A DNA stretch of 64,000 bases from Pseudomonadota bacterium (GCA_043823065.1 JBDRBB010000008.1:159355-223354); one strand, 5' to 3'; shown: positions 1-57,103, numbered from the stretch's first letter. Numbers and translations are program-made. The notes: generated from the sequence alone by a model not told the origin.

Positions 1-649
1 GGCCATGCGTTTTTCTCTGAAGCTGGCGACGGCGGTTATAATTCCTCTGAGCTTGTTTCATCAACTGGTTAAACCGTTTAGGTTTGTTTTAAGGAAAATA
101 GCAGATGGCATTGTGATTGTCCTGGGCGGCTCATCTGAGAAGTTGCCGCCAATGGTTATGGAAGAAGAGTTTCGTCATTTGGTTGATTTGGGAAAAAAAG
201 AAGGGGTTATTGTTGAAGAAGAGAGAAAAATGATCCACAATGTTTTTGAATTTTCCGATAAAACAGTGCTGACTATAATGACTCCATTTGATCAAATATT
301 TACGATTTCCAGTGATATTGAACACGAAGCTCTTTTAAATGAGATTAGGCTTACCCAGTTTTCACGTATTCCAGTTTATGAAGGACATCGGAACAATATA
401 ATTGGCATCTTGCATATGCGCGACCTGTTTGGTTTTCACCGTCAGCGCCAGGCTGGTCATGCTCAAAATCTGCGCTCAATTTTACGCAAACCATTATTTG
501 TCAAACCAGATACGCAGCTGGAAAAATTGCTGGAGAATTTCCAGCAGGAGCGGAATTTAATGGCCATTGTTCAGGATCAGGGCCAAGTTCTGGGTTTGGT
601 TACCATGGATGATCTGTTGGAAGAAATTTTTGGAGAGATGGAAAAATAA
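1..649 (+). CDS. HlyC/CorC-family transporter-associated protein, C-terminal part (CBS pair + CorC_HlyC domain); 5' end lies outside the window
   Basis: ORF 5..649 translation shows a CBS pair and a C-terminal CorC/HlyC-type domain (…DLLEEIFGE). Its N-terminus looks like the end of a DUF21 membrane domain, so the gene is probably truncated by the window edge. Confidence 0.55.
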   Translation, partial: AMRFSLKLATAVIIPLSLFHQLVKPFRFVLRKIADGIVIVLGGSSEKLPPMVMEEEFRHLVDLGKKEGVIVEEERKMIHNVFEFSDKTVLTIMTPFDQIFTISSDIEHEALLNEIRLTQFSRIPVYEGHRNNIIGILHMRDLFGFHRQRQAGHAQNLRSILRKPLFVKPDTQLEKLLENFQQERNLMAIVQDQGQVLGLVTMDDLLEEIFGEMEK

Positions 650-653
650 CATT

Positions 654-1886: not shown

Positions 1887-1898
1887 GAAGATAAAAAT

Positions 1899-9981: not shown

Positions 9982-11192
9982 AGACCAAATTTTTGTTCTA
10001 CAGCTTCGTAATAATCAATTACTTGGCGCACATATTCTCTCTTTTCAGAGTAGTTTCCAGGATGGAAACTGCGTTTGAATCCATAGATAATAATATCTTT
10101 CAATGTTGACAGAGAAATCTCAAAATTTTTAAGCGCCAGCTCAACTTCCTGGCTAATGGTGGTTCTGGAAATTAAGCGATTGTCTGTGCAAAAAGTGGTC
10201 GAGATTCTGGCTTCTAACATTTGTTTAAAAGGATGGGCAGAAGGTTCTTTAAGTGCCGGAATAGTTTGCCTGTTGGAAGTGAGGCAGATTTCAATGGTGA
10301 TGCGCCGATCAGCAATGTATTGGGCCAAGGCTTGCACATATTTTTTGCGCTCATTAACGTCCGGCAGATCCACCATATTGTAATTAAATAGATGCGTGCC
10401 ATGACCAATGCGATCAGTATGGCAGTCAGTAATAGCCTGGAAAATTGAGGCAGGGCCATAGGCTTCGCCAGCATGCACAGTTTTTTTGAAAAAATGTTTG
10501 TGCGCTAATTCATAGGCATGACGATGGGCTTCTGCTGGATAGCCTTTTTCCGCGCCAGCCAGGTCCACGCCAACAATGGCCAGACCACAGTCGTTTCTGG
10601 CTTTAATCAGGGCCCGAACTAAATCTAGAGAAGCCAGACCAAAACGCTCTTCATCTGGCATATCAGGATGCAGATTAAACAAACTTCGGTAATAAGGCGA
10701 ATAACTTTTCTTAAACATTCTTAAGGCACAACCAATAATACCAAATTCAAAACCTGGTTTATCGCCTTTTTTAATTTCCTCCTGGCGATTAATTTCCTTT
10801 TTCGCTTTATTTAACCCGTTATGTACACTAGTTAAAACAGCCAAAAGGTCTAGATTGGCATTTACGTGTAATTGTGGGGCAAATCTTACTTCCAGATAAC
10901 AAACGCCTTCAGCATAAGCATCTAAGCCTAATTCATAAGCAATTCTTTCAATTGCTTCCGGAGTTTGCATTACAGCCACGGTATATTGAAAGCCGCGCAA
11001 ATATTCTACCAGATCTTGATAAGTGTCTTTAAAAACAAGCTTAGATAACTCTTCTTCGGTTTGAGCTGGCAACATGATATTTTGTTCTTTGGCCAGTTCA
11101 ATAAGCGTGGAAAGTCTTAAGCTGCCGTCAAGATGGCAATGTAGATCAGTTTTGGGAATCGTCTTGATAAAATCAGAATTAATTTTGGTCAT
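9978..11192 (-). CDS. Adenosine/adenine deaminase family metallo-hydrolase
   Basis: PKTDLHCHLDGS motif near the N-terminus. ATG at 11192 is preceded by AAGGA. The ORF extends to 11270 without an RBS. Confidence 0.6.
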   Translation of the reverse strand: MTKINSDFIKTIPKTDLHCHLDGSLRLSTLIELAKEQNIMLPAQTEEELSKLVFKDTYQDLVEYLRGFQYTVAVMQTPEAIERIAYELGLDAYAEGVCYLEVRFAPQLHVNANLDLLAVLTSVHNGLNKAKKEINRQEEIKKGDKPGFEFGIIGCALRMFKKSYSPYYRSLFNLHPDMPDEERFGLASLDLVRALIKARNDCGLAIVGVDLAGAEKGYPAEAHRHAYELAHKHFFKKTVHAGEAYGPASIFQAITDCHTDRIGHGTHLFNYNMVDLPDVNERKKYVQALAQYIADRRITIEICLTSNRQTIPALKEPSAHPFKQMLEARISTTFCTDNRLISRTTISQEVELALKNFEISLSTLKDIIIYGFKRSFHPGNYSEKREYVRQVIDYYEAVEQKFGL

Positions 11193-11284
11193 AAATATCC
11201 TTGGACATCCAGTTATCATTTGTAATTTGCAGTTGTTATAGATTTGCGTTACCATGTAAGTCAATAACAAATATGTGAGGGGTT

Positions 11285-28738: not shown

Positions 28739-30198
28739 AACTAAGTGAGTTGACAAAAAATATTGATATATTGAATTCATTTGGCGAGCTGGACCGCGAA
28801 ATTCGCGAGCTAACCTATCACAGCGGTCAGGTGCAGCCACATGGTATTTTTGTGGCGGTAAAAGGACAGCAAGCTGATGGGCATAAATTTATTGCTCAGG
28901 CTATTCAGGCCGGGGCAAGTGTTGTTGTTACTGAAAAGAAGGTTCAAGTTTCAGAAGAGGTTACTAATTTAGTAGTCGCTGATACCAGAAAAACCCTGGC
29001 CCAGCTTTCAGCTAATTTTTTTGGCGACCCCTCCAGACATATTGCTTTGATTGGAGTAACTGGCACTAATGGCAAGACCACTACCACCTATTTGTTGGAA
29101 GCTATATTTGAGCAGGCAAATTTTAATCCTGGTGTGATTGGCACAATTGAACATCGTTTTGGCAAAAATCGTCTGCCAGCCAAAAACACCACTCCTGAGT
29201 CTTATGATTTGCAAAAACTTTTGCGTCAAATGCTGGATCAGCAGATTAATGTTTGTGTGATGGAAGTTTCTTCGCATGCCTTAATGATGGAAAGAGTAAC
29301 AGGTTGTCATTTTGACGGCGCTATTTTTACCAATCTCACTCCAGAACATTTGGATTTTCACCAGGAAATGGATGCTTATTTTTCAGCTAAAACCAAATTG
29401 TTTCAGGAAAATTTAGCGCAGAGTAAAAAGAAAAATACATTTGCAGCAATTAATATTGATGATCCATATGGCCAAAGATTGCTTGGCCAGAGCAACTATA
29501 AAATTATTAAATATGCTTTAACCAATCAGGCAGATGTTAGGGCAACTGAAATTAAAGCAGGTGCTCAAGGTATTAGTCTAAAAATTGCCACTCCTAATGG
29601 TAGCTTTTCATGTGTTTCAAAGCTGCTGGGTAAATTTAATGTGCATAATATTTTGGCAGCAACTTCCACTGCTATTGGTTTGGGTCTGCCTTTGGAAATT
29701 ATTGGACAAGGGCTGGCTAAAGTTAGAGCTATCCCTGGTCGGTTTGAACAAGTTTTGAATGAAAAAGGAATTTTGGTTTTTGTGGATTATGCGCACACCC
29801 CAGATGCCTTAAGAAATGTTTTAATGCAGGCAAAAGAGTTGCTGACTGGAAATTCAAAACTTATCTGTGTGTTTGGTTGCGGCGGAGATCGCGATAAACA
29901 AAAACGTCCAGCAATGGGAGCGATTGCCTCTAAATATGCAGATCGAGTTTTGATCACCAATGATAATCCCAGAACTGAAGATCCAGCCATGATTATCAAA
30001 GATATTATAGTAGGAGTAAAGGGCGCTAACTTCGAGATTATCGAGGCGCGTGAACAAGCAATAAAAGCAGCGGTAGAAATGGCTAAAGAAGGAGATGTAA
30101 TTGTGGTGGCTGGTAAAGGACATGAAGATTATCAAATTATTGGCACTACTCGTCGTCACTTTGATGACCGGGAAGTTTTACGGGAATATTTGCAATGA
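28735..30198 (+). CDS. murE: UDP-N-acetylmuramoyl-L-alanyl-D-glutamate--2,6-diaminopimelate ligase (mDAP-type, DNPR motif)
   Basis: GTNGKTTTT P-loop and a DNPR motif (DNPRTEDP). ATGA overlap with ftsI. Confidence 0.85.
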   Translation: MKLSELTKNIDILNSFGELDREIRELTYHSGQVQPHGIFVAVKGQQADGHKFIAQAIQAGASVVVTEKKVQVSEEVTNLVVADTRKTLAQLSANFFGDPSRHIALIGVTGTNGKTTTTYLLEAIFEQANFNPGVIGTIEHRFGKNRLPAKNTTPESYDLQKLLRQMLDQQINVCVMEVSSHALMMERVTGCHFDGAIFTNLTPEHLDFHQEMDAYFSAKTKLFQENLAQSKKKNTFAAINIDDPYGQRLLGQSNYKIIKYALTNQADVRATEIKAGAQGISLKIATPNGSFSCVSKLLGKFNVHNILAATSTAIGLGLPLEIIGQGLAKVRAIPGRFEQVLNEKGILVFVDYAHTPDALRNVLMQAKELLTGNSKLICVFGCGGDRDKQKRPAMGAIASKYADRVLITNDNPRTEDPAMIIKDIIVGVKGANFEIIEAREQAIKAAVEMAKEGDVIVVAGKGHEDYQIIGTTRRHFDDREVLREYLQ

Positions 30199-31616
30199 AT
30201 TTAACTTTACAAGACATAATTGAAACCACGCAAGGCAGGTTTCTAAAAAAGGCAGCTTGTCATTCCCGCGAAAGCGGGAATCTAGAGGGTATAAGTATAG
30301 ATTCGCGCACTATAAAGCCTAGTGATTTGTTTATGGCGATCAAGGGTGCGCATTTTGACGGCAATGATTTTATTGCGGCAGTCATTAATAAGGGTGTGAA
30401 AGCAGTAGTGATTGATAGAGAGCTTGGTGCTGATCAATTAGCTAATATTGCTGAAAACGTCAGCGTGATCAAAGTGAATGAAGGGACAACTGCTTTAGGC
30501 GATTTAGCTAAATGGTGGCGAGCCAAATTTAAGGCAACTTGTGTGGCGATTACCGGCAGCAATGGCAAGACAACTACCAGAGAAATGGTGGCAGCAATTG
30601 CTTCAGCCAAAGGAAAAGTTTTAAAAACCGAAGGCAATTTCAATAATTTAATTGGTTTGCCTTTAACTGTTTTTAAGTGGACCAGAGAAGATCAGGTGGC
30701 GGTTTTGGAATTGGGTATGAATGCTAAAGGCGAAATCAAACGCTTAACTGAAATTTGTCAGCCTGATATTGGGGTGGTCACTAACGTGACTGCCGCTCAT
30801 TTGGAAAAATTAAATACTGTAGAAGGCGTGGCTAAAGCTAAAGCAGAACTTTTTGAACAAATGAGCGGCCAGGGTATTGCTATTATCAATGATGAAGATC
30901 CCTGGGTAAAGAAAATGGGAAAACAATATTCTGGACGCACCATAAGCTTTGGTATGCAAAATAGCAGCGATGTGCAGTTTAGACATTCAGAATGCACTGA
31001 TTTTGAAAATGTTGATCTTACTTTGGCAGTTATGGGCGAAGAAAGAAAAATTAGACTGCCTATACCTGGCACGCACAATGTGATGAATGCCTTGGCTGCA
31101 GTTGCGGTAGGTGTGGCTTTGGAAATTAAATTAGATGAAATATTGGAACGCTTGGTTTGTTTTACTCCAGTGGCTATGCGTTTTGAAAGAGTGCAGTTGG
31201 CTAATGGCGTTTGTTTAATCAATGATTCTTATAATGCCAATCCATTGTCTATGAAAGCTGCTTTTAGAACCGTGAGTTCAGTTAAAAGAGCGGGTAGGTT
31301 TATCGCAGTTTTGGGTGATATGTTGGAATTAGGTGCTCAGTCAGAAAATCTGCATAAAGAAGTAGGCCAGGATCTAGTGGAATTTGGTGTTAAAAAACTT
31401 TTTACTTTTGGAGAACGCGCTAAACAAATTGCCCAAGGAGCTTTAGAAAAAGGCTTGAGTGCCAAAGCAATTCAACAAACACAAGATATTAAAGAGTTAG
31501 AAAAATTAGTTGATGCTGAAATTCAGCCAGGAGATGTTTTGTTAGTTAAAGGTTCCAGGGGAATGCATTTGGAAAGATTAGTGGAATATTTAAAACATAA
31601 TATAGGAATAGGCTAA
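30195..31616 (+). CDS. murF: UDP-N-acetylmuramoyl-tripeptide--D-alanyl-D-alanine ligase, carrying an in-frame 24-bp hairpin-repeat insertion
   Basis: GSNGKTTT P-loop, conserved position. The N-terminal domain contains the extra residues ACHSRESGNL encoded by the repeat at 30258-30283. Confidence 0.85.
   Translation: MNLTLQDIIETTQGRFLKKAACHSRESGNLEGISIDSRTIKPSDLFMAIKGAHFDGNDFIAAVINKGVKAVVIDRELGADQLANIAENVSVIKVNEGTTALGDLAKWWRAKFKATCVAITGSNGKTTTREMVAAIASAKGKVLKTEGNFNNLIGLPLTVFKWTREDQVAVLELGMNAKGEIKRLTEICQPDIGVVTNVTAAHLEKLNTVEGVAKAKAELFEQMSGQGIAIINDEDPWVKKMGKQYSGRTISFGMQNSSDVQFRHSECTDFENVDLTLAVMGEERKIRLPIPGTHNVMNALAAVAVGVALEIKLDEILERLVCFTPVAMRFERVQLANGVCLINDSYNANPLSMKAAFRTVSSVKRAGRFIAVLGDMLELGAQSENLHKEVGQDLVEFGVKKLFTFGERAKQIAQGALEKGLSAKAIQQTQDIKELEKLVDAEIQPGDVLLVKGSRGMHLERLVEYLKHNIGIG
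30258..30283. repeat. GNRA-tetraloop hairpin element GTCATTCCCGCGAAAGCGGGAATC (copy 1, in-frame within murF)
   Basis: Perfect 7-bp stem TTCCCGC/GCGGGAA around a GAAA loop. Near-identical copies occur at 33388 and 40533. Confidence 0.75.
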
Positions 31617-32695
31617 TGCTATATCACTTATTATATCCTTTGTATGAGCAGTTTATAGGTTTCAATGTCTTAAGGTACGTCACTTTTAGAACATTTGGAG
31701 CCTTGTTTACTGCTCTGGCTATCTACTTTATTTTTGGCAAACCCATGATCTCTTTTTTGATTCGCAAAAGGGTGTGGCAAACAGTGCGAAGTGATGGGCC
31801 AGTAAATCATATTATTGATAAGCGTGGAACGCCAACCATGGGCGGTATCTTGTTGTGGCTATCAGTAATTGTCTCTGTGCTTTTATGGACCAGGTTTGAT
31901 CAATTATATGTCTTAATTGGTTTGGCCCTGGCTGTTGGGTTTGCAGCCATTGGTTTAATTGATGATTATCGCAAAGTGGTTCTCAAAGATGCCAAGGGTT
32001 TAAGGGCTCGTTACAAATTTCCCTTGCAGGTTATGGTGGCCTTGGTGGTTGTTTTAGTTCTTTATGATTGTTTGGGTTCGAGCACTATTTTATCCGTGCC
32101 TTTTTTTAAGAACTTTCAACCAGATTTAGGCTGGTATTATTATCCATTTGCCGTGTGTGTAATTGTCGGCGCTTCCAATGCCGTGAATTTGACCGATGGT
32201 TTAGATGGTTTGGTAAGTGTTCCTTCAATTGTGGCTTTTTTTGCCTATGCAGGGCTGGCTTATATTGCTGGTCACATGGTTATAGCTTCTTATTTAACAG
32301 TACCTTTTGTCTCAGGTAGTGGTGAATTGACTGTGATGTGCGGGGCAATTGTTGGCGCTTGCCTGGGTTTTCTGTGGTTTAATTCTCAACCAGCTTCTGT
32401 GTTTATGGGCGATGTAGGCTCACTGCCTTTAGGCGCAACATTGGGTTATGTGGCTTTGGTTACCAAAAATGAACTCTTGCTTTTAATTATTGGCGGAATT
32501 TTTGTCTTGGAAACAATTTCGGTTATTACCCAAGTTGTTTCTTTTAAGTTAACCAAAAAACGTATTTTTAGAATGGCGCCTTTGCATCATCATTTTGAAC
32601 TTAAGGGGTGGGCAGAATCCAAAGTAATTGTGCGTTTCTGGATTATTGCCTTTGTTTTGGCATTGATTAGTTTAACAACTTTGAAATTACGTTAA
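31616..32695 (+). CDS. mraY: Phospho-N-acetylmuramoyl-pentapeptide transferase
   Basis: Ten-TM protein with NAVNLTDGLDGL and HHHFE motifs. Confidence 0.9.
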   Translation: MLYHLLYPLYEQFIGFNVLRYVTFRTFGALFTALAIYFIFGKPMISFLIRKRVWQTVRSDGPVNHIIDKRGTPTMGGILLWLSVIVSVLLWTRFDQLYVLIGLALAVGFAAIGLIDDYRKVVLKDAKGLRARYKFPLQVMVALVVVLVLYDCLGSSTILSVPFFKNFQPDLGWYYYPFAVCVIVGASNAVNLTDGLDGLVSVPSIVAFFAYAGLAYIAGHMVIASYLTVPFVSGSGELTVMCGAIVGACLGFLWFNSQPASVFMGDVGSLPLGATLGYVALVTKNELLLLIIGGIFVLETISVITQVVSFKLTKKRIFRMAPLHHHFELKGWAESKVIVRFWIIAFVLALISLTTLKLR

Positions 32696-32698
32696 AAT

Positions 32699-34096
32699 AT
32701 GGAAGATCTAAAGAATAAAAAAGTACTCATTATTGGTTTGGCGCGGTCTGGCCTGGCAGCAGCTCGTTTTGCTGCTGAGCGCGGAGCCAAAGTTATTGTT
32801 TCAGACAGCAAGCCAGAGAAACAGCTTAAAGAACAAGTGCAATTCTTGAAAGATTTGAACTTAGAATTTTCTTTAGGAAAAAATGATCAAAGCTTAATGA
32901 CCAAGGCAGATTTAATAGTGGCTAGCCCAGGTGTACCCTTGAATTTAGCTGGGCTAGATCAAGCCAGAGCTAAGGGTATTCCCATAGTTTCTGAAATGGA
33001 ATTGGCGCTAAATGAAATCAATAAACCTATTATAGCTATAACAGGCACTAATGGAAAAACTACGACGACTTCTTTGATTGGCCATGTCTTGCACCAGTCA
33101 GGATTAAAGGTTTGTGTTGCGGGCAATATTGGTCAGGCCTTAAGTGGTATGGTAAAAGAAGCAAATGCAGCTGATTGGGTGGTTTTAGAGGTGAGTAGTT
33201 TTCAATTAGAAACCACGCCATCTTTGGCTCCGCAAATAGCCATTTTGCTAAATGTGACAGCAGATCATTTAGATCGTCATGGAAATTTGGAAAAATATCT
33301 TCAGGCCAAGTTGAAAATTTTTGCCAATCTTAAACCAAATGGATTTGGTGTTTATAATGCCGAGATTGCCTGTCAGCCCTCAGTTGCTTGTCATTCCCGC
33401 GAAAGCGGGGATCCAACTCTAGATCTCTGCCTACGCAGGGATGACAAACATAGAAACTATATTGCTTTTAACGCTAAAAATGATTTCCAGCAAGGAAACT
33501 TGATAACCAGGATAAAAGAATATGGCGAAAAATCCTGGAGCTTGGCTGAAGTAAATTTATTTGGTGCGCATAATTATGAGAATTTATTGGCAGCTATTAT
33601 CGCCTCCCAACTGGTCGGTCTGGAAGACCAAACCATAGCGCAGGGTTTAAAAACTTTTAAGGGTTTGCCGCATCGTTTGGAACTAGTTGGTGAGCAAAAT
33701 GGGGTGCGCTATTTTAATGATTCCAAAGGTACTAATGTCGGAGCCACAATTGCTGCTCTAGAAAATTTTCAAAATGTAATCTTGATTGCTGGTGGACAGG
33801 GAAAAGGCGGAGATTTTCTGGATTTAGCAGCAGTAATTTCCCAGCGAGTAAAGAAAATGATTTTGATTGGCGAAACCAAACAGCAAATAGCGGAACAGCT
33901 TGGCAAGTTAACTGATACGGTATTTGCCGATAACCTGGAACAAGCAGTTAAATTGGCGCATCATTCAGCAGGAAATAGCGATGTAGTCTTGCTTTCTCCA
34001 GCCTGCGCCAGCTTTGATATGTTCAAGGATTATGTAGAACGGGGAGATGTTTTTAAAAAAGAGGTAAGTAAATATTTGACTAAAGATTGTCATTGA
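32699..34096 (+). CDS. murD: UDP-N-acetylmuramoylalanine--D-glutamate ligase, carrying an in-frame 60-bp composite hairpin-repeat insertion
   Basis: GTNGKTTTT P-loop. The insert CHSRESGDPTLDLCLRRDDK is encoded by 33388-33447. Confidence 0.85.
   Translation: MEDLKNKKVLIIGLARSGLAAARFAAERGAKVIVSDSKPEKQLKEQVQFLKDLNLEFSLGKNDQSLMTKADLIVASPGVPLNLAGLDQARAKGIPIVSEMELALNEINKPIIAITGTNGKTTTTSLIGHVLHQSGLKVCVAGNIGQALSGMVKEANAADWVVLEVSSFQLETTPSLAPQIAILLNVTADHLDRHGNLEKYLQAKLKIFANLKPNGFGVYNAEIACQPSVACHSRESGDPTLDLCLRRDDKHRNYIAFNAKNDFQQGNLITRIKEYGEKSWSLAEVNLFGAHNYENLLAAIIASQLVGLEDQTIAQGLKTFKGLPHRLELVGEQNGVRYFNDSKGTNVGATIAALENFQNVILIAGGQGKGGDFLDLAAVISQRVKKMILIGETKQQIAEQLGKLTDTVFADNLEQAVKLAHHSAGNSDVVLLSPACASFDMFKDYVERGDVFKKEVSKYLTKDCH
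33388..33447. repeat. 60-bp composite element with inverted termini TTGTCAT…ATGACAA (copy 2 of the hairpin family plus a degenerate inverted partner), in-frame within murD
   Basis: TTGTCATTCCCGCGAAAGCGGGGATC…GATCTCTGCCTACGCAGGGATGACAA. The length is a multiple of 3. Confidence 0.7.
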
Positions 34097-35223
34097 ATAT
34101 GAATTTTACTGAACTTAAAAAAATGCATTTTGATTCCTGGTTGCTCTTTTTAACCATCTTACTGGTTGGTTGTGGAGTAATTATGGTGTATAGCTCCAGC
34201 GCGGTTTTGGCCCAGGAACGTTTTGGAGATAGCTATTTTTATTTAAAACGCACTTTAGCTTTTGCAGTAGTTGGTTTTATCGCCATGGCCATTGCCTTAA
34301 AAGTGCCTTACCGCATTTATTATCGCTTGGTTTATCCAATTTTAATTGGTTCTTTGATTTTAGTGTTTTTGGTTTTTATCCCGCAAATTGGCAAGACCAT
34401 TGGCGGCGCTACGCGCTGGATAAATTTGGGTCCAGTTGCTTTTCAGCCCTCTGAATTGGCCAAGGTAGCCATGATAATCTTTCTGGCTTATTCTTTGGAA
34501 AAAAAGGCAGAAAAAATAAGATCTTTTAGCATAGGCTTGGTGCCGCACTTGCTGGTGATGTTTGTGGTGGCTGGCTCTATTTTGGCGCAGAAAGATTTTG
34601 GCGCAGCAGCCATGATTGCCGCTATCACCTGGTTTATGCTTTTTGCAGCTGGAGCTAAAAAAAGTTATTTATTTGGCATGATTGCCTTGTTGATTCCATT
34701 TGCCTATATGTTTTTGTCGTTAGAAGGGTATCGCAAACGTCGCATCTTGGCTTTTCTTAATCCTTGGAGCGATCAATATGGGGCTGGTTTTCAGATTATT
34801 CAATCTTTTGTGGCTTTTAATGAAGGTGGTTGGTTGGGTCGCGGTTTAGGCGAAGGTCGCCAAAAATTATTTTATCTACCAGAAGCCCATACTGATTTTA
34901 TTTTTTCGGTTATTGGGGAAGAAATGGGCTTAATCGGCGTTATTGCTGTTATAGTTTTGTTTGCCTTGTTTTGCTATCGGGGTTTACATATTGCTTTGCA
35001 AGCGCCAGACATGTTTGGCCGATATTTAGCCACTGGCGGCACTTTGCTTATTTGTTTGTCCGCAGTTTTTAATATGGGTGTGGTTATGGGGTTGTTGCCC
35101 ACGAAAGGCATGGTTTTGCCGTTTATTAGTTATGGGGGTTCTTCATTAGTTGTCTTGCTGGTTGTGGTGGGAATTTTACTAAATATTTCCTCCTATAAAC
35201 GTGTAGAGGAAGTAAATATATGA
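34087..35223 (+). CDS. ftsW: Peptidoglycan glycosyltransferase / lipid II flippase FtsW (SEDS family)
   Basis: Multi-TM SEDS protein, conserved position between murD and murG. Confidence 0.85.
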   Translation: MSLNMNFTELKKMHFDSWLLFLTILLVGCGVIMVYSSSAVLAQERFGDSYFYLKRTLAFAVVGFIAMAIALKVPYRIYYRLVYPILIGSLILVFLVFIPQIGKTIGGATRWINLGPVAFQPSELAKVAMIIFLAYSLEKKAEKIRSFSIGLVPHLLVMFVVAGSILAQKDFGAAAMIAAITWFMLFAAGAKKSYLFGMIALLIPFAYMFLSLEGYRKRRILAFLNPWSDQYGAGFQIIQSFVAFNEGGWLGRGLGEGRQKLFYLPEAHTDFIFSVIGEEMGLIGVIAVIVLFALFCYRGLHIALQAPDMFGRYLATGGTLLICLSAVFNMGVVMGLLPTKGMVLPFISYGGSSLVVLLVVVGILLNISSYKRVEEVNI

Positions 35224-36317
35224 GCGATACTAGATATAAAAATAAAGTTTTGATTGCCTGTGGAGGAACAGGTGGACACGTGTTTCCTGGCGTGGCCATT
35301 GCCCAAGCTTTTGAAAAAATAAGTCCAGAAACTGAACTAGTGTTTGCTGGTACCAAGCGTGGTTTGGAAAACCAGGTAATAGCAGACTCTAAATATCGTT
35401 TGCTGAAGTTAGAAGCACTATCCTTAAAAGATCGTAAATGGATAGGAAAAATTAGCGCCTATGTTTTTTTGCCAATAACTTTGTTTAAGGCCCGTCAAAT
35501 CTTAAAAACTGAAACACCAGATTTGGTAATTGGCGTTGGTGGCTATGCTGCAGGCCCATTGTGTTTAATGGCTGCTTTAATGAACATTCCTACGGCAATT
35601 GTTGAGCCTAATGCTATTGCTGGTCTTAGTAATCGTTGGCTAGGACATTTTGTAAAAAGAATTTACACAGGATTTTCAGAAGTTGGGGAGTTTTTTCCCA
35701 GACAAAAAGTTCTGTTAACTGGCAATCCAGTACGCCAAGAAATTGTGGAGTTGCGAGATAAAAATAGATTTGCCGGAGATTTTATTAATATTTTCTGTTT
35801 TGGCGGATCGCAGGGAGCAAAGCCTATTAACGAAGCTTTGGTTGATGCTTTGCCGCATTTAGTAAGTGCTAAAAAGAAGCTTAAATTTATGCATCAGGTT
35901 GGTAAAAAAGATGATCTAGAAAAAATAAAGCAGGCTTATAAAACCAATGGTTTTGAGGCCCAGGTTTTTGAGTTCTCAACAGAGATTTGGAAGTTTTATG
36001 CTAACGCAGATTTGGTGGTTGGGCGCAGCGGGGCAACGACCACCGCCGAGGTGGCAGTTGTTGGTTTGCCGGCTATTTTAGTGCCATACCCCTATGCTGC
36101 TGATGATCATCAGCGGGCCAATGCTCAAAATCTGGAACGTTGCGGCGGGATTAAACTGATTATGCAGGATAAATTAAACGGTAAAACTTTGGCCGAAGAG
36201 ATTATTAAATTAGGTTCAGATAAATTGTTAATGATGCGCTCAGCCTTATTAAAATGTGGCAAGCCTGATGCAGCTGAAAGAATTGTGCAAGATTGCTTAA
36301 AATTAATGAGTAAATGA
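35220..36317 (+). CDS. murG: UDP-N-acetylglucosamine--N-acetylmuramyl-(pentapeptide) pyrophosphoryl-undecaprenol GlcNAc transferase
   Basis: GGTGGHVFP N-terminal motif and a GT28 fold. ATGA overlap with ftsW. Confidence 0.85.
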   Translation: MSDTRYKNKVLIACGGTGGHVFPGVAIAQAFEKISPETELVFAGTKRGLENQVIADSKYRLLKLEALSLKDRKWIGKISAYVFLPITLFKARQILKTETPDLVIGVGGYAAGPLCLMAALMNIPTAIVEPNAIAGLSNRWLGHFVKRIYTGFSEVGEFFPRQKVLLTGNPVRQEIVELRDKNRFAGDFINIFCFGGSQGAKPINEALVDALPHLVSAKKKLKFMHQVGKKDDLEKIKQAYKTNGFEAQVFEFSTEIWKFYANADLVVGRSGATTTAEVAVVGLPAILVPYPYAADDHQRANAQNLERCGGIKLIMQDKLNGKTLAEEIIKLGSDKLLMMRSALLKCGKPDAAERIVQDCLKLMSK

Positions 36318-36320
36318 AAT

Positions 36321-37691
36321 ATGTTTAATAAATATCAAAAAATACATTTTGTGGGCATTGGCGGCATTGGCATGAGCGGAATTGCTGAAATTTTGCTGAC
36401 GCGCGGCTTAACTGTAACAGGATCTGATCTTAAATTAAGCTCAGTCACCAAGAAACTGAAAAGACGGGGAGCTACAATTTGGGAAGGTCATCATAAAAAA
36501 CACGTTTTTGGCGCCCATGTGGTAGTAGTTTCCTCTGCGGTTTCCAAAACAAACCCAGAAGTTAAGCAGGCCTTAAAAATGGGTGTGCCAGTGGTGCCCA
36601 GAGCAGAAATGCTGGCAGAACTAATGCGTCTAAATTATGGTATTGCTGTAGCTGGTACCCACGGCAAGACCACCACCACTTCTTTAATAGCCAGTGTTTT
36701 AGAGAAAGCTGGATTTGATCCAACAGTGGTGATTGGCGGTAAGGTTAAGAGTTTGCGCGGCAATGCCAGAACTGGTAAGGGTAATTTTTTGGTGGCAGAA
36801 GCAGATGAATCAGATCGTTCATTTTTAAAGCTATCGCCTACCATTGGCGTGATTACCAATATTGATCCAGAACATTTGGAGAATTATCGCAGTTTTAATC
36901 ATCTTAAAGAAGCCTTTGCCAATTTTGCTAACAAAGTTCCTTTCTATGGTTCAACTATTTGTTGTTCAGATCATCCAGTGGTTAGGCGTATTTTGCCTAA
37001 AGTGGATCGCCGTCTGATTACTTATGGTGTAAATGGCGGGTCAGACTATACTGCTAAAAATATTTTGGTTCAAAATGATCGCCTAAATTTTGAAGTTTAT
37101 TATCAGCAGGAAAGTTTGGGTAAAATTACTTTACCCATGGTTGGCCGTCATCAGGTAATGAATGCCTTGGCAGCGATTGCTGTGGGACGCGAACTAGATA
37201 TTCCCTTTGCCTCCATAAAAAAATCCTTAAAATGTTTTAGCGGCATTTCTCGCAGGTTTGAGGTTTTGTCCAGAAAAGGTCCTTTGGTGGTAGATGATTA
37301 TGCTCACCATCCAGTGGAAATTGCTGCTACTATAGTTGCCGCTAAAGAGAGTTGGCCAGAGAAGCGCCTGATTGCAGTTGTTCAACCCCATAGGTTTAGC
37401 AGGCTTAAGGCTTTGTTTGAGGAATTTGTGCAAGTGTTAAAACCAGCAGACATGATTCTAGTAATGGATGTTTATGCTGCTAGTGAAAAACCTTTGCGCG
37501 GCATTTCTGGTAAAAACTTATGTGAGGCCATTAGAAAGAAATATCTGAAAAAACCAGTGGCTTATGCGCCAAACAAGGCAGAGGTTTTTACTAATCTAAA
37601 CTCCTGGTGTGGTCAGGATGATTTGGTTTTATTTTTAGGAGCTGGAGATATAACAAAAGTGGCACACGAATATGCTAAGACGCTTAAATAA
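36321..37691 (+). CDS. murC: UDP-N-acetylmuramate--L-alanine ligase
   Basis: GIGGIGMSG N-terminus and a GTHGKTTTT P-loop. Confidence 0.85.
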   Translation: MFNKYQKIHFVGIGGIGMSGIAEILLTRGLTVTGSDLKLSSVTKKLKRRGATIWEGHHKKHVFGAHVVVVSSAVSKTNPEVKQALKMGVPVVPRAEMLAELMRLNYGIAVAGTHGKTTTTSLIASVLEKAGFDPTVVIGGKVKSLRGNARTGKGNFLVAEADESDRSFLKLSPTIGVITNIDPEHLENYRSFNHLKEAFANFANKVPFYGSTICCSDHPVVRRILPKVDRRLITYGVNGGSDYTAKNILVQNDRLNFEVYYQQESLGKITLPMVGRHQVMNALAAIAVGRELDIPFASIKKSLKCFSGISRRFEVLSRKGPLVVDDYAHHPVEIAATIVAAKESWPEKRLIAVVQPHRFSRLKALFEEFVQVLKPADMILVMDVYAASEKPLRGISGKNLCEAIRKKYLKKPVAYAPNKAEVFTNLNSWCGQDDLVLFLGAGDITKVAHEYAKTLK

Positions 37692-37694
37692 AGA

Positions 37695-37780
37695 GGTTCT
37701 CGACAAGCTCGAACAATAAAGAGCATCAAATATTCTTCGAGCGAGTCTCTCGACTTTGCTCGAGACGAGTCGAGAAGATA
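37695..37780. repeat. Mosaic palindromic intergenic repeat (family copy A: GTTCTCGAC…CTCGAACAATAA…TATTCTTCGAGCGAG…GTCGAGAAGAT) between murC and murB
   Basis: Shares the TTCTCGAC / CTCGAACAATA / TATTCTTCGAGC / GTCGAGAAGA blocks with copies at 38727, 41833, 47818, 55019-55706, 57084 and 59833. Confidence 0.7.
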
Positions 37781-37784
37781 ACCA

Positions 37785-38728
37785 ATGACGCTAACTGGAA
37801 AACAACAAGAGAAGTTACAGGAAATAGCCCAAGATTGTGTGCTTTTTGAAGAAAGGCTGGCCAAATATTCAACCATTCAAATTGGCGGGCTGGTTGATGC
37901 TTTAGTAACGCCTGCCAATTTGGATATGCTCAAACAAGTTTTGAATTGGGCCAAGCAGGAAAGGATTCCCTATTTGTTTTTAGGAGCAGCTAGCAATACC
38001 TTAATTCGCGATGGTGGTTTTAGGGGAATTATTCTGCGCCTGAAAAAAGGTTTTGATCAAATAGAAGTGATTAATCAGGCTGGGGAGGATGTTTTTATCA
38101 GCGTTGGCGCGGGCCTTTTTACTGCTACTTTGGTGCAGTTTGCTGCGGAAAATGGTTTTGCTGGCCTGGAATTTTTAGCCGGAATTCCAGGTTGTGTGGG
38201 TGGTAATGTGCTGACCAATGCTGGTACTAATGAATCTTGCGTTGCTGATGTGTTAGATGAAATTTCTGTGGTAGATCGTTCGGAAAAAGAAATGAGCCTC
38301 AAACGCAAGGCCTTGGATTTTTCTTATCGCAACTTGAAGCTGGCCAGATCTACCGCAGTTATTAAAGCAGTTTTTAGATTAAAAAAAACAGATCCAGAGC
38401 AGGTGCGACACGCTGTGGAAAAGTTAATTGAAAAACGCAAACAAAGTCAGCCCTGGGGTAAATTAAGTTTAGGCTGTGTATTTAAAAACCCGATTGCTGG
38501 TAAAGGTAAAAAGAATTTAAGCGCGGCAAGTTAATTGATGAGTTGGGTTTAAAACAGGTGCGTGTTGGCCAAGCCAGGGTTTCAGAAAAACATGCTAATT
38601 TTATTATTAATGAAGGTGGGGCCACAGCGCGCGATGTTGAGGTTTTAATGGGGTTGATCAAGGAAAAAGTCAAACAGCGTTTTGGCTTAAATTTAGAACC
38701 AGAGATAGGGATAATAGGAGAGATCTAG
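37785..38728 (+). CDS. murB: UDP-N-acetylenolpyruvoylglucosamine reductase, reading frame broken by an apparent -1 frameshift (ORFs 37785..38534 and 38543..38728)
   Basis: First ORF has the MurB FAD-binding domain. The downstream -1 frame reads …RGKLIDELGLKQVRVGQARVSEKHANFIINEG…, the conserved MurB C-terminus. Both frames are open across 38510-38534. Confidence 0.7.
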
Positions 38729-38781
38729 TTCTCGAGGCGCTTCGCTTACTCGAACAATATTGTTCGAGCTTGTCGAGAACA
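38727..38781. repeat. Mosaic palindromic intergenic repeat (copy B) between murB and ddl; near-perfect 55-bp palindrome
   Basis: AGTTCTCGAGGCGCTTCGCTTACTCGAACAATATTGTTCGAGCTTGTCGAGAACAAG. The core CTCGAACAATATTGTTCGAG is a perfect palindrome. Confidence 0.75.
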
Positions 38782-38794
38782 AGAAAGGGCTCAG

Positions 38795-39733
38795 ATGCTT
38801 AATAAGTGGAAAGATAAAAAAATTGCAGTGCTAATGGGTGGTCAAACAAAAGAGCGGGAGATCTCGTTAAAAACAGGCGCAGCCATTAGCAAGGCCTTGA
38901 ATAAATTAGGTTACCAAGTCGTAGATATTGATGTTGGTAACGATTTGGTAGAAAGATTGAGGAAAGAAAATATCCAGGTGGCGTTTATTGCTTTACATGG
39001 CAAGTTTGGTGAAGATGGTTGCGTGCAAGGGTTACTTGAAATGTTACGCATTCCTTATACCGGCACTGGTGTTATTGGCTCAGCAATTGGCATGGATAAG
39101 ATTATTTGTGACATGGTGGCCAAACAGCTGGATATTCGTCTGCCTAGGGAACAGTTTTTTTATTTTAATCATGAACCTAAAGAGACAATTGTTAAAAAAG
39201 TTGAAATTGATTTGCCTTTAGTGGTGAAGCCAGCCAGGGAAGGCTCAACCATTAATCTTAGTATTGTGCGCCAGCCCGAAGAACTTGAGCCGGCGATTAT
39301 CACAGCAGCCAAATCAGATAATAAAATTATTATTCAGGAATATATTGCCGGCAAAGAAGTTACTGTTGGTTTGCTTAACGGCCAAGCCCTGCCAGTATTG
39401 GAAATCGTGCCTAAAAGCGGTTTTTACGATTATACTTCAAAATACACTAAAGGCCTGACTGAATATATTGTGCCAGCGCGCATTTCGGAAAAATGCGCAG
39501 AAAAGATTCAAAAATGGAGTGCTGATATATTTAAGGCCTTGGAGGGCTCAGGCGTGGCGCGTTGCGATTATATTATAGATAAAAATGATCAGGCCTATTT
39601 TTTAGAGATTAACACTATTCCAGGCATGACCGAATTGTCATTGGTGCCTAAAGCAGCTGCCCATATAGGTATCAGCTTTGAACAATTAGTGGAGCAAATA
39701 TTAGACGCAGCAGCGCTAAAGGTGAATATATAA
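38795..39733 (+). CDS. ddl: D-alanine--D-alanine ligase
   Basis: ATP-grasp fold. N-terminal motif (HG.FGEDG) and C-terminal E-N (FLEINTIPGMT) motif. Confidence 0.85.
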   Translation: MLNKWKDKKIAVLMGGQTKEREISLKTGAAISKALNKLGYQVVDIDVGNDLVERLRKENIQVAFIALHGKFGEDGCVQGLLEMLRIPYTGTGVIGSAIGMDKIICDMVAKQLDIRLPREQFFYFNHEPKETIVKKVEIDLPLVVKPAREGSTINLSIVRQPEELEPAIITAAKSDNKIIIQEYIAGKEVTVGLLNGQALPVLEIVPKSGFYDYTSKYTKGLTEYIVPARISEKCAEKIQKWSADIFKALEGSGVARCDYIIDKNDQAYFLEINTIPGMTELSLVPKAAAHIGISFEQLVEQILDAAALKVNI

Positions 39734-40569
39734 TGAGGGGATTTCTTAAAACACAGAATGTAAAGAAAAAGGGGATCGTTGCTAGGCATTTTAGGGCGGT
39801 GGAGCGAATTCTGTTTTCTCTAGCCGTGGTCTTTGGAGGGCTAGCCCTGCTTTATGGTTTATATTTAGTAATTGTGTTTGGTCCATTTTTTAATGTGGAA
39901 AAAGTAATTGTGGCTGGGGAATTAACTCATTTAAATCAAAGCCAGGTGGAGACATTGGCCAAAGTTAGTCCAGGGCAAAAGCTGTTTGGCGTAAACGTGC
40001 AAAAAATGCATTTGAACTTAAAAAAACATCCTTGGGTCAAGCAGGCTACAGTTAGAAGACGGTTGCCAGATACGGTTTGGATTTATATTGAAGAATATCA
40101 GCCAGTGGCCATTTTCATTAATAAGAACAAGCCATATTTTGTGGACGAACAAGGTATTGCGTTTAAGCAAATAGAAGCAGGAGAATCTAAAAATTTCGAA
40201 ATTATTTCAGGATTGAGAAATTTTGAAAATCAGCAAGAATTACAGGCAGAGCTTAAACAAAGTTTGGAACTTATTAGTTTATATAAAAAATCTAAGTTTA
40301 GCCAGATTTTGGGGATTGCAGAACTGCATTATGCCAAGCCATATGGATTTTCTATTATTACAGAAAAAGGCCCGATAGAAATATTTTTGGGAAATAGTTT
40401 TTCCCAGGAAAAATTTCAGATTCTGGATCATTATCCAGGGGTGATTGAACGAGCTCAGGAAAAAATTAGATATATTTTTGCCAATAATGAGAATAGGATT
40501 GCTGTGGGTTATGAGGATGTTTCCCAAGCGGTGTCATTCTCGCGAAAGCGGGAATCCAGTGCGTTATAA
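39733..40569 (+). CDS. ftsQ: Cell division protein FtsQ/DivIB (POTRA domain); the C-terminal 12 aa are encoded by a hairpin repeat
   Basis: Bitopic protein with an N-terminal TM helix, then POTRA-like region. Conserved position before ftsA. The tail VSFSRKRESSAL is encoded by the hairpin-family copy at 40533-40556. Confidence 0.65.
   Translation: MRGFLKTQNVKKKGIVARHFRAVERILFSLAVVFGGLALLYGLYLVIVFGPFFNVEKVIVAGELTHLNQSQVETLAKVSPGQKLFGVNVQKMHLNLKKHPWVKQATVRRRLPDTVWIYIEEYQPVAIFINKNKPYFVDEQGIAFKQIEAGESKNFEIISGLRNFENQQELQAELKQSLELISLYKKSKFSQILGIAELHYAKPYGFSIITEKGPIEIFLGNSFSQEKFQILDHYPGVIERAQEKIRYIFANNENRIAVGYEDVSQAVSFSRKRESSAL
40533..40556. repeat. Hairpin element copy 3 (GTCATTCTCGCGAAAGCGGGAATC, one stem mismatch) forming the 3' end of ftsQ
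   Basis: Same element as 30258 and 33388, here in a different reading frame. The ftsQ stop codon follows immediately. Confidence 0.7.
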
Positions 40570-54295: not shown

Positions 54296-55054
54296 ATGAT
54301 AGAGCTTAAAAATGTCAAAGCCTGTTTATTTGCCGGTGGATTGGGCACTAGATTACGGAAAGTAATAGCTGATCGTCCCAAACCCATGGCTGAGGTGCAA
54401 GGACGACCTTTATTAGAATATGTAATGCTGCATTTGGCCAAGCAGGGGATCAAACAGTTTATTTTCTCCATTGGTTATTTGGGGGAAATGATTGAGGCTT
54501 ATTTTCAAGACGGAGCAAAATGGGGAGTTAAAATAGAATATGTTAGAGAAAAAGAATTGCTAGGCACTGGGGGTGGACTTTTGCTGGCCAAAGATTTGTT
54601 TTCAGAACCAGCAATTATTGGTAATGGCGATACGCTTTTAGAAATTAATGTGGTTGAGCTGTTGAAGTTTCATCAAGAAAATAAAGCTGATTGGACCATA
54701 GCAGTTAGGCTAGCCCAGCAGGAAATAAATGATCCTATGGGAAAATTTATAGTAAATGATCAGGGCCAGATTCTTAAATTACAAAAAGATGGTCTAAAGC
54801 AAAAAGGGGAATATATTAATGGGGGCACATATTGTGTTTCCCCCAATATCCTTGATAGCCTGAACCCCAAAGAAGTTTGTTCTCTGGAAAAAGATTTATT
54901 GCCAGATTTAATGGATAGAAATGCCAAGTTGTTTATTTTTCCAACCCAAGGATTTTTCTGCGATATCGGCACTCCTGATGATTATCAAAATCTCTGTAAA
55001 ACCGGTGTGCCTGTTGAATATTATTCTTCGAGCGAATCCGCCAGAAGCGGATAA
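54296..55054 (+). CDS. Sugar-phosphate nucleotidyltransferase (HddC-like D-glycero-D-manno-heptose-1-phosphate guanylyltransferase candidate); the C-terminal tail is encoded by a repeat
   Basis: GGLGTRLR nucleotide-binding motif. About 230 aa of NTP_transferase fold. gmhA and gmhB lie nearby. The last ~12 codons (EYYSSSESARSG) fall within repeat block E. Confidence 0.6.
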   Translation: MIELKNVKACLFAGGLGTRLRKVIADRPKPMAEVQGRPLLEYVMLHLAKQGIKQFIFSIGYLGEMIEAYFQDGAKWGVKIEYVREKELLGTGGGLLLAKDLFSEPAIIGNGDTLLEINVVELLKFHQENKADWTIAVRLAQQEINDPMGKFIVNDQGQILKLQKDGLKQKGEYINGGTYCVSPNILDSLNPKEVCSLEKDLLPDLMDRNAKLFIFPTQGFFCDIGTPDDYQNLCKTGVPVEYYSSSESARSG

Positions 55055-55224
55055 GTCGAAGGGGCCCCCAAAGATATTCTTCGAGACCCCTAATATTCTT
55101 CGAGCTGGTCGAGAAGAATAGATTGGTTCTCGATGCGCTTCGCTTACTCGAACAATAATGGGGGGTGACCCCTAATATTCTTCGAGCGAGGTCGTAGGCC
55201 GAGCGAGAAGGGTGAGGAAATAAT
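55019..55224. repeat. Composite mosaic repeat block E upstream of the GIY-YIG gene
   Basis: Contains hairpin AATCCGCCAGAAGCGGAT, two GACCCCTAATATTCTTCGAG units, CTGGTCGAGAAGAATAG and GGTTCTCGATGCGCTTCGCTTACTCGAACAATAAT. The stretch 55098-55200 is ~95% identical to 55587-55706. Confidence 0.75.
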
Positions 55225-55497: not shown

Positions 55498-55706
55498 AGG
55501 TTCTCGACTTCGCTCGAACAATAATAATCGGGACCCCCTAATATTCTTCGAGACCCCCTAATATTTTTCGGGACCCCCTAATATTCTTCGAGCTGGTCGA
55601 GAAGAATAGTATTGGTTCTCGATGCGCTTCGCTTACTCGAACAATAATGGGGTGACCCCTAATATTCTTCGAGCGAGGTCGTAGGTCGAGTCGAGAAGAA
55701 TAGACT
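55498..55706. repeat. Composite mosaic repeat block F downstream of the GIY-YIG gene, including 3 tandem ~20-bp units
   Basis: GGTTCTCGACTTCGCTCGAACAATAATAAT, then three ACCCCCTAATATTCTTCGAG-type units (55532-55592), then the same ~110-bp segment as block E. Confidence 0.75.
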
Positions 55707-55758: not shown

Positions 55759-56370
55759 ATGAAACAAAAACCAGATAATCTGAAGCTTCTAGAGTCCTTT
55801 AGTCTGGACTTAAAAGGAGTTTTTACTTTAGCTGATCTAAGGGGAATATATCCAGATAAGCATACTCTTACTTTTTATAGAAGGATTAAGAGCTTAGAAA
55901 AAGATGGAATTTTGACTAGAGTGTTAAAGAGTATTTATGTTTCTAAATCTTTTGATATTGATGTTTTGAGTCAAAAAATTTGTCCAAATTCTTATATAAG
56001 TTTTGAAAATGTTTTGGCCAAGGAGTTGGTTATTGGCACAGTGCCAAAAAATTCAGTTCGTGCCGCAAAAAAGGGTAAAAAAAGAGAATATAAGTTTGAT
56101 GCTAAAAAAATTATACATTTAGGTCTTGCTACCCATCTTTTTTTTGGTTTTAAAACTAGACAAGGTGTTAATTATGCTACCAAAGAAAAAGCATTCTTAG
56201 ATACGCTTTATTTTTATAACAAAGGGGTTAGATTTTATTTTGATATTTTTTCTGATATTAATCTAGAACAATTAAACATCAAGCTGATACATAAATATCT
56301 TAAAAAATATAAAAATCCCAAGTTTATTAATTTTGTAAAAAATTATTTAAATGAACATTCCTTTTCCTAA
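55759..56370 (+). CDS. AbiEi-like antitoxin / transcriptional regulator (type IV TA)
   Basis: 203 aa with an N-terminal wHTH-like region (LADLRGIYPDKHTLTFYRRIKSLEKDGILTRV). It overlaps the downstream nucleotidyltransferase gene by 20 nt. The region is AT-rich. Confidence 0.45.
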   Translation: MKQKPDNLKLLESFSLDLKGVFTLADLRGIYPDKHTLTFYRRIKSLEKDGILTRVLKSIYVSKSFDIDVLSQKICPNSYISFENVLAKELVIGTVPKNSVRAAKKGKKREYKFDAKKIIHLGLATHLFFGFKTRQGVNYATKEKAFLDTLYFYNKGVRFYFDIFSDINLEQLNIKLIHKYLKKYKNPKFINFVKNYLNEHSFS

Positions 56371-57103
56371 AAATTTGTCGCAAGATTCATTGTTTGCTTG
56401 GCTCATGCATAGAATTTCCCTGGAGTTTCGTGAGCATGCTATTTTAAAAGGTGGCATGTCTTTTAGATTGGTTAATTCTCCCAGAAGCACTAATGATCTA
56501 GATTATGTTTTTGTGCCATTTAAATCAAAAAAGGAAATTGCTCCTGTTTTAGAAAAAATTGTTTCAGAAATTCCCAGCGCCAAAATAACTAGATCCATGC
56601 ATTCCACTGCTTTGCGCCTAAATATTTCTGTAGAAGATGTTAATGTTCAACTTGAAGCTGATATTGCCATGAATTGTAAATCAGCACCCATGTCCACCAG
56701 TGCTTTAGCCAGCAAGGTTGATCAACTAAGTCAGGTGATTAGGATTATGAGTTTTGATGTGGCCTTGTCTCATAAGTTGGCAGCTTGGAATGAAAGAAGG
56801 TTATTAAGAGATTTATATGATGTTTATTATTTATATAAAGTGGTTGGAGTTGTTCCTGATAAAGACACTCTTTTGTCTAGGTTGGATCAAATTAATTCAC
56901 GCATTCCCAGCCTTAAAAACAGGAAGAAAATGAAAATGTCTGAGTTCTTGGCTGAATTAAAAAAAGCAGCAGATGAGATAACAGAGCAAAAGCTGGAAGA
57001 AGAGTTGGCGCCGCTTTTAAATCTTAATGAATTGCCGGGATTGGCCATTAAGCTTCGAACAAGCATAAATGAGTTGGTTGCATATATTCTTCGAGCTGCT
57101 TGA
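56351..57103 (+). CDS. AbiEii/AbiGii-family nucleotidyltransferase toxin (DUF1814-like)
   Basis: N-terminal motif ILKGGMSFRL…RSTNDLDYVF matches the pol-beta-type hG[GS]…[DE]h[DE] NTase signature of AbiEii. The C-terminal tail YILRAA is encoded by a repeat. Confidence 0.6.
   Translation: MNIPFPKNLSQDSLFAWLMHRISLEFREHAILKGGMSFRLVNSPRSTNDLDYVFVPFKSKKEIAPVLEKIVSEIPSAKITRSMHSTALRLNISVEDVNVQLEADIAMNCKSAPMSTSALASKVDQLSQVIRIMSFDVALSHKLAAWNERRLLRDLYDVYYLYKVVGVVPDKDTLLSRLDQINSRIPSLKNRKKMKMSEFLAELKKAADEITEQKLEEELAPLLNLNELPGLAIKLRTSINELVAYILRAA

Follow-up and report, generated by a model that had tools for sequence, protein, structure and literature searches.

The dcw cluster and its repeat copies

The stretch of DNA analyzed here, 64,000 nucleotides from a Pseudomonadota bacterium (GCA_043823065.1, JBDRBB010000008.1:159355-223354; hereafter the window, all window counts referring to the whole 64 kb), carries a canonical division and cell wall (dcw) cluster in which a short palindromic repeat lies within three genes, murF, murD and ftsQ. 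Judged by their sequence, these repeats are copies of one widespread hairpin element that has been described under several names: dRS3, CGTC-1 repetitive extragenic palindrome (REP), Rickettsia palindromic element (RPE) 6 or RPE-6, and NTS or SRM. By NCBIfam assignment the cluster contains murE, murF, mraY, murD, ftsW, murG, murC, ddl, ftsQ and ftsA; it also includes mraZ, a STAS-domain gene and ftsZ. The assignment of ftsQ is based on orthologs with POTRA_1 and FtsQ_DivIB_C domains and the same synteny. Open reading frames (ORFs) cover about 95% of the window, so that a repeat has little space between genes in which to insert.

The 24-mer GTCATTCCCGCGAAAGCGGGAATC was found without mismatch at positions 30259-30282 on the plus strand, and with one mismatch each at 33390-33413 and 40533-40556, again on the plus strand; a match appeared in none of 100 dinucleotide-preserving shuffles, and no copy is expected at random. 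The three copies within dcw coding sequence that had been claimed in the original prediction were thereby located, and its count was accurate for the forward arms; it had missed a fourth arm in murD, inverted and degenerate (GTCATCCCTGCGTAGGCAGAGATC, 33422-33445, minus strand), which looser search patterns revealed. Beyond these arms the looser patterns yielded no extra copy in the window, so that the tally stands at three sites, four arms and one dimer, the latter in murD (Table 1).

Table 1. Repeat copies in the window, the genes that host them, and the GIY-YIG gene discussed below.
Feature	Position	Strand	Details
murF	30195..31616	+	NCBIfam TIGR01143, E = 8e-135; hosts the first copy
Solo forward arm in murF, NTS / CGTC-1 repeat	30258..30285	+	TGTCATTCCCGCGAAAGCGGGAATCTAG; exact 24-mer
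murD	32699..34096	+	NCBIfam TIGR01087, E = 1.6e-133; hosts the doublet
Doublet in murD	33390..33445	+	56 bp: forward arm 33390-33413, 8-nt spacer, inverted degenerate arm 33422-33445
ftsQ	39733..40569	+	Weak NCBIfam FtsQ matches; hosts the 3'-terminal copy
Solo forward arm at the 3' end of ftsQ	40532..40559	+	TGTCATTCTCGCGAAAGCGGGAATCCAG; 24-mer with one mismatch, and SRM match
GIY-YIG gene, single-domain, 90 residues	55225..55497	+	Pfam PF01541, E = 7.5e-17

The murF arm is translated as C-H-S-R-E-S-G-N-L, corresponding to MurF residues 22-30, and the murD doublet, its tags facing outward, encodes MurD residues 231-248 approximately (CHSRESGDPTLDLCLRRD). The ftsQ arm is read in another frame than its counterparts in murF and murD, as VSFSRKRESS, and the protein finishes with ...VSFSRKRESSAL; this arm ends 8 nt short of the ftsQ stop codon (40567-40569) and about 40 nt short of the ftsA start (40597), with 27 nt separating stop and start. 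The reading frames are as originally described, with CHSRESG in both MurF and MurD and a differently framed C-terminus in FtsQ.

Each repeat unit consists of an unpaired 5' tag (C/T)GTC, an 8-bp stem that starts with AT and carries a 4-nt loop, and a short tail. The stem, previously given as 7 bp, is formed by 8 bp (ATTCCCGC/GCGGGAAT) closing a GAAA loop; all eight pairs are Watson-Crick pairs in the murF arm, and the murD and ftsQ arms have seven Watson-Crick pairs and a single mismatch, which is G.T on the plus strand and A.C on the minus strand. Folded as DNA, the murF arm forms the perfect 8-bp stem with its GAAA loop (dG -9 kcal/mol, z -2.9), and the murD doublet forms a long hairpin (dG -15.1 kcal/mol, z -3.9). 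The hairpins of the original prediction stood up to this comparison with either nucleic acid; their single-strand folding energies were 2.6-3.9 standard deviations lower than those of shuffles as DNA, and 2.8-6.1 lower as RNA. On the minus strand the ftsQ arm folds no better than shuffles, since the mismatch is A.C there and G.T on the plus strand. The GC content of the repeat arms is about 58%; the sense strand, which is richer in G, carries all of the forward arms, and the 24-mer is open in five of six frames.

Identity of the repeat

The 28-nt NTS encompasses the Neisseria repeat dRS3, ATTCCC-N8-GGGAAT (Chenal et al., 2025, Nat Commun 16:2388, PMC11893778). The murF copy differs from the NTS consensus CGTCATTCCCGCGMAVGCGGGAATCYRG by one mismatch, and the window copies overall by one to three. 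The degenerate SRM pattern is matched by the murF and ftsQ copies, compared with 0.04 matches per shuffle; the murD forward arm misses this pattern at its final base alone. In Neisseria and in Wolbachia, the forward strand of the repeat is bound and cut as single-stranded DNA (ssDNA) by SsnA, a 94-residue GIY-YIG protein that binds this strand in single-stranded form only, does not bind RNA, and cleaves a few bases upstream; cleavage depends critically on the GTC that precedes the palindrome, and binding on the C that follows it (PMC11893778). Both determinants, GTC before and C after the palindrome, are kept in all three forward copies of the window. SRM repeats flank ssnA homologs across phyla (PMC11893778).

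The same element was classed among the CGTC-tagged REPs by Di Nocera et al. (2013, BMC Genomics 14:522, PMC3733652), whose CGTC-1 family is defined by an unpaired 5' CGTC tag with the variants TGTC, which is frequent, and CCTC, by an 8-bp stem that opens with AT and closes a loop of 4 nt, and by a tail resembling CCA, and who equated CGTC-1 with Neisseria dRS3 and with RPE-6 of Rickettsia conorii. All three forward arms of the window have a T before GTC and thus the TGTC variant of the tag; their 8-bp stems start with A-T and T-A pairs and enclose a 4-nt loop, and the bases past the stem are CTA in murF and CCA in murD and in ftsQ.

The window copies therefore share with the NTS/SRM repeats and their Ssn nucleases the sequence, the hairpin, the asymmetric flanks (GTC and C) and the spread across phyla, and an Ssn-like gene adjoins the 24-mer in seven of the loci fetched for this analysis; they differ in that the GIY-YIG gene of the window is accompanied by another hairpin repeat. 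With CGTC-1 they have in common the tag, stem, loop and tail, the short-spacer dimers, and the intragenic and 3'-terminal copies that encode peptides such as CHSRESGNP, CHSRESGDP and SFPRKRES; the host here is a low-GC metagenome-assembled genome (MAG) labelled Pseudomonadota bacterium and not an alphaproteobacterium or Neisseria, and the genes murF, murD and ftsQ are not on the published CGTC-1 list, whereas murB and the gene for PBP1C are. Elements of the RPE-1 type (Ogata et al., 2000, 2002; summarized in PMC10969869) are likewise selfish palindromic DNA; they occupy in-frame sites in unrelated housekeeping genes where the protein fold can accommodate them, and related species share them. 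They are about 100-150 bp long and encode a conserved peptide of their own, in contrast to the window copies of 24-56 bp, which are of the RPE-6/CGTC-1 type. REP and REPIN sequences with their RAYT enzymes (IS200/IS605-like) resemble the present repeats as short hairpins that often form inverted doublets and persist vertically over long times, and in the association of a repeat-flanked small nuclease gene with an implied ssDNA mechanism; the tag is (C/T)GTC here and not GTAG, and the enzyme is a GIY-YIG nuclease and not a Y1 transposase. Assignment of the window copies to GTAG REPs with a RAYT element was rejected on account of their TGTC tag and of the lack of a Y1_Tnp domain in window ORFs of at least 90 residues.

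The original prediction combined a selfish, RPE-like element with a structured RNA capped by a GNRA tetraloop. The first part agrees with the comparisons above; the second was abandoned, as the loops vary between GAAA, GAAG, GTAG and GCAG in the arms of the window and of its closest relative (P0002 at locus L001, NCBI assembly GCA_054920855.1; about 77% MurF identity), the published consensus loop is G-M-A-V (PMC11893778), and an Rfam search found no family at the gathering threshold or at E <= 1; in addition, SsnA is specific for ssDNA.

Inserts in MurF and MurD and the extension of FtsQ

In an alignment of 21 MurF proteins (the window, P0002, and 19 others at 64% identity or less), extra residues between the blocks 'GG.L' and 'G[VI].ID.R' occur in the window protein and in P0002, and are absent in all 19 others; the window MurF is longer than its orthologs by a net 5 residues. 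The window MurD has a 17-residue insert that none of the 42 aligned orthologs (56% identity or less) shares. L001 carries inserts at the same sites in murF and in murD. Scanning of three further dcw clusters (L231-L233) revealed no repeat copy, and the protein search returned a single relative above 64% MurF identity. On these alignments the murF and murD inserts are specific to the lineage of the window and L001. As a side observation, the window and L001, with the repeat, have a GC content of 38-40%, and the clusters L231-L233, at 60-64% MurF identity and without the repeat, one of 49-53%.

The ftsQ copy is of a different kind. FtsQ of L232 and L233 stops at ...ITVGY(N/TGS), and the window FtsQ continues for another 17 residues, the last 12 of which are mostly encoded by the repeat; this copy is best seen, from the sequence comparison, as belonging to the 3' end of ftsQ or to the ftsQ-ftsA spacer, with ftsQ now reading into the repeat. 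The claim that the repeat had been inserted into all three genes consequently applies to murF and murD, where the copies are internal, and not to ftsQ, where read-through at the 3' end has produced a C-terminal extension.

Structure models place the inserts in loops, in keeping with the surface-loop location that had been proposed for them. Mean pLDDT values (the AlphaFold confidence measure) were 89.2 for MurD and 88.3 for MurF; the sole low-confidence stretch of the MurD model, in blocks 221-250, coincides with the insert, and in the MurF model pLDDT falls to 64 in one block only, the lowest-scoring block 21-30, which holds the insert between two short strands. Alignments of MurF and MurD to structures in the PDB gap or break at the insert points. 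In these otherwise confident models, the predicted position of both inserts is thus a loop.

The same heptapeptide in two Mur ligases, and nothing beyond it, would speak for CHSRESG as an ancestral protein motif or as an artefact of assembly or binning, and this explanation has next to no probability. Among 240 fetched homologs of MurF and MurD, the CHSRE motif was confined to the proteins of the window and L001, and the CHSRESG residues that had been looked for in unrelated MurF and MurD were not found in this set; in ftsQ the repeat is translated in another frame; and the independent assembly GCA_054920855.1 has both inserts, with reading frames intact. The ortholog alignments and the ftsQ frame together effectively refute an ancestral motif.

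Distribution and genic copies elsewhere

Further copies of the element, as expected of a mobile repeat in the original prediction, are numerous. The exact 24-mer was found in 109 IMG/VR stretches and in at least 120 genome stretches of GTDB, where species-representative genomes were scanned. The GTDB matches listed include Alpha-, Beta-, Gamma- and Deltaproteobacteria, Dehalococcoidia, Bacteroidota, groups of the Candidate Phyla Radiation (CPR), Verrucomicrobia, Planctomycetes, Terriglobia, Nitrospirota and a Rickettsia endosymbiont; named hosts among the matches listed are Povalibacter, Devosia and Sphingomonadaceae. In the Rickettsia endosymbiont, an intergenic element of 119 bp has perfect inverted ends of 28 bp that are formed by the 24-mer. 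A survey of 296 foreign copies in fetched loci showed that GTC is preceded by C in 191 copies and by T in 88, and that an inverted partner with tags facing outward accompanies 118 of the 296, the median doublet measuring 84 bp. A relaxed regular expression for GIY-YIG ORFs picked out Ssn-like ORFs of 92-109 residues adjoining the 24-mer in seven of the fetched loci; these proteins are mutually similar.

Long ORFs span 19 of the 296 foreign copies, and the genomes concerned all have a GC content of 55% or more; most of these candidates were dismissed since the copy lies upstream of the true start or the frame is spurious. One intragenic copy was verified and another is probable. The verified case (L100, an IMG/VR contig; 176-3244, minus strand) is an ORF of 1,023 residues with a Prim-Pol domain at 100-297 and a D5_N domain at 503-718, in which the 24-mer is inserted in frame and in reverse orientation; at residue 458, in the interdomain linker, its translation is DSRFRGNDE; the probable second case (L144) is a membrane protein of the PMT_2 family.

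The published record of R. conorii contains closer precedents. In-frame CGTC-1 copies encode CHSRESGNP in RC1314 and CHSRESGDP in UvrC (RC0864), SFPRKRES forms the C-terminus of RC0382, VIPAKAGI recurs in several proteins, and CGTC-1 dimers lie within MurB (RC0332) and PBP1C (RC0249) (PMC3733652, Additional file 3). A review of 2024 treats in-frame insertion of RPEs as established. The in-frame location is therefore not new, and a precedent in cell-wall genes exists; the statement that the pattern had not been known for this gene cluster holds in the narrow sense that murF, murD and ftsQ are unlisted, and fails for cell-wall genes at large in view of the MurB and PBP1C dimers. What is new is the host lineage and the host genes murF, murD and ftsQ, for a phenomenon that was already known.

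Three literatures that are rarely cited together are joined by this repeat: Rickettsia RPE-6, the CGTC-1 REPs with dRS3, and the NTS/Ssn nuclease system of 2025. Chenal et al. (2025) are silent on coding copies and on RPEs (PMC11893778), and a literature search returned no paper that connects 'Rickettsia palindromic' with GIY-YIG. This connection suggests that palindromes encoding protein segments, in Rickettsia and elsewhere, may have arisen as a by-product of repeats associated with Ssn. In genome annotation, peptides such as CHSRESGNP, SFPRKRES, VIPAKAGI and DSRFRGND can serve as flags for the repeat in any proteome.

Origin and history of the copies

The evidence from alignments, structure models and distribution supports the reading of the repeat as a selfish, palindromic, RPE-like element that is tolerated in protein loops; short palindromic selfish repeats can, as these genes illustrate, settle in frame in essential proteins and endure. 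The element would have spread as a non-autonomous selfish repeat in an ancestor of the lineage of the window and L001, its mobilization presumably based on ssDNA and provided in trans by an Ssn-type nuclease. The genome is very compact, and the surviving copies would be those that landed where an insertion is tolerated: in MurF within a loop of the N-terminal domain, in MurD within a surface segment of the central domain, and for ftsQ at the end of the gene or in the spacer to ftsA. Their survival would have depended on an open reading frame kept in register; since only such survivors are seen, the preserved frame reflects survivorship and not design. Frame preservation itself was correctly predicted, and the special significance attached to it is withdrawn for this reason and because the 24-mer is open in most frames.

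The murF and murD insertions are older than the split from L001, as they are common to two genomes whose third-codon identity is only 50-59%, and have been remodeled since. In murF, the solo arm of the window contrasts with a doublet and a 21-nt partial duplication in L001; in murD, L001 has two extra 18-nt partial repeats; the spacer lengths differ between the two genomes, and L001 has dimers at both sites. In the proposed sequence of events, the murF copy of the window would have been trimmed to a solo arm, L001 would have gained its partial tandem duplications, and the inverted arms would have decayed. The tandem partial duplications of L001 (6052-6150 and 9330-9440; one of 21 nt in murF, two of 18 nt in murD) begin at the TGTCAT tag; they adjoin the reported SsnA cut site, and might be repair scars.

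Several observations weigh against this account of a tolerated selfish element mobilized by an Ssn nuclease. Elsewhere the repeat is overwhelmingly extragenic, with about 2 intragenic copies among 296, so that the window, where all three copies lie in or abut genes, is atypical for the family, although about 95% of the window is covered by ORFs. Mobilization of NTS or CGTC repeats by Ssn has never been demonstrated, and the authors of the Ssn study note only that an Ssn gene with its flanking repeats resembles an insertion sequence (PMC11893778). The window contains no Ssn gene flanked by the 24-mer; its sole GIY-YIG gene is divergent and flanked by a different repeat, and both the copy count and the search for a cognate nuclease cover 64 kb of the host genome. 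Finally, the forward arms are more conserved between the window and L001 than would be expected of a decaying relic, a point that is taken up below.

Spread by other enzymes was also weighed. The repeats could mainly be targets of IS110/Piv-type recombinases, by analogy to Neisseria dRS3 and the meningococcal filamentous phage, and could have been disseminated by recombinases or recombination and not by Ssn; dRS3 has been reported as a phage recombinase target (PMC11893778), and viral and prophage contigs frequently carry the 24-mer. This explanation is ranked low, as highly improbable, because the window has no recombinase: the Pfam search of its ORFs of at least 90 residues found no transposase or recombinase domain. 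Moreover, serving as a target leaves the presence of the repeat inside genes unexplained, and ssnA is the gene class documented with the repeat across phyla (PMC11893778).

Conservation of the forward arms

The orthologous arms of the window and L001 agree at 62 of 72 positions (86%), compared to the third-codon identity of 50-59% in the same genes, and the excess is pronounced against an expectation of 0.55 (binomial p = 2e-8); against whole-gene nucleotide identity, which is 73-79%, it is marginal (p = 0.02-0.09). In this comparison the forward arms retain eight of eight pairs, including a compensatory change from C-G to T-A in murD, while the inverted arms gather mismatches. The conservation of the arms could be due to selection, to gene conversion from other copies or, given the few sites, to chance.

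It is conceivable, if unlikely, that selection or continual gene conversion has kept the forward arms as strand-specific ssDNA sites for an Ssn-type nuclease within the dcw cluster; if so, they would form a REPIN-style persistent population that modulates recombination or transformation of this cluster. A broader functional explanation, in which the hairpins are selected dcw elements that act either as Ssn sites affecting recombination or as mRNA hairpins in transcript processing or stability, is given an equally small chance. Such Ssn cut or binding sites would lie on the strand that is exposed in replication or transformation. Every forward arm is on the sense, G-rich strand; the stem mismatches read G.T on the plus and A.C on the minus strand, the SsnA determinants are intact in three of three copies, and both the arm identity in excess of third-codon identity and the contrast between fully paired forward arms and decaying inverted arms, with the compensatory murD change, speak for this explanation. 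Yet the comparison comprises two genomes and three sites, the excess over whole-gene identity is the marginal one given above, and gene conversion from other copies would produce the same pattern in the absence of function; relatives at 60-64% MurF identity manage without the repeat, SsnA binds no RNA, and Rfam offered no match. The tolerated selfish element remains the preferred reading; forward-arm conservation provides a small but testable handle on whether such intragenic copies are still active substrates.

The GIY-YIG gene and a second hairpin repeat

The protein of the GIY-YIG gene (Table 1) is 32-43% identical to the seven Ssn-like proteins that adjoin the 24-mer elsewhere, and is without their conserved C-terminal NPEWRDL. 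Clusters of a second hairpin repeat, about 40 nt long with the core CTCGAACAATAATGGGG...CCCCTAATATTCTTCGAG(C), lie on both sides of the gene (55019-55210 and 55500-55705), together with the companion pieces GTCGAGAAGAATAG and ATTGGTTCTCGATGCGCTTCGCTTACTCGAACAATAATGGGG. These sequence features suggest a divergent member of the Ssn family with a cognate repeat of its own; the gene product is unlikely to be the nuclease that is cognate to the 24-mer. The exact 18-mer of the second repeat was found in one IMG/VR contig only (L234). Another copy occupies the entire murC-murB spacer (37692-37784), and the dcw cluster has therefore been colonized by two hairpin repeat families. The murE-murF region of L001 holds a possible remnant of the second repeat (AAGGTTCTCG...).

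Directly downstream of the GIY-YIG repeat cluster, a gene for an AbiEii-family toxin (56351-57103; Pfam PF08843) is preceded by an unannotated ORF of 203 residues (55759-56370); the two (55759-57103) look like a small accessory island.

Other features of the window

The murB gene (37785-38728) is read in two frames, 37785-38534 and 38543-38728. Comparison with an ortholog indicates that one G was apparently lost from a GCGGGC run near 38515 (...AGCGCGGCAAGTTAATTGATGAG; region 38493-38524); the frame break is either a sequencing or assembly indel of the MAG or a genuine frameshift in an essential gene. Outside the dcw cluster, an adenosine deaminase ORF of 430 residues (9978-11270, minus strand) is matched by the Pfam A_deaminase model (330 positions) in two stretches, which suggests an N-terminal extension or an internal insert.

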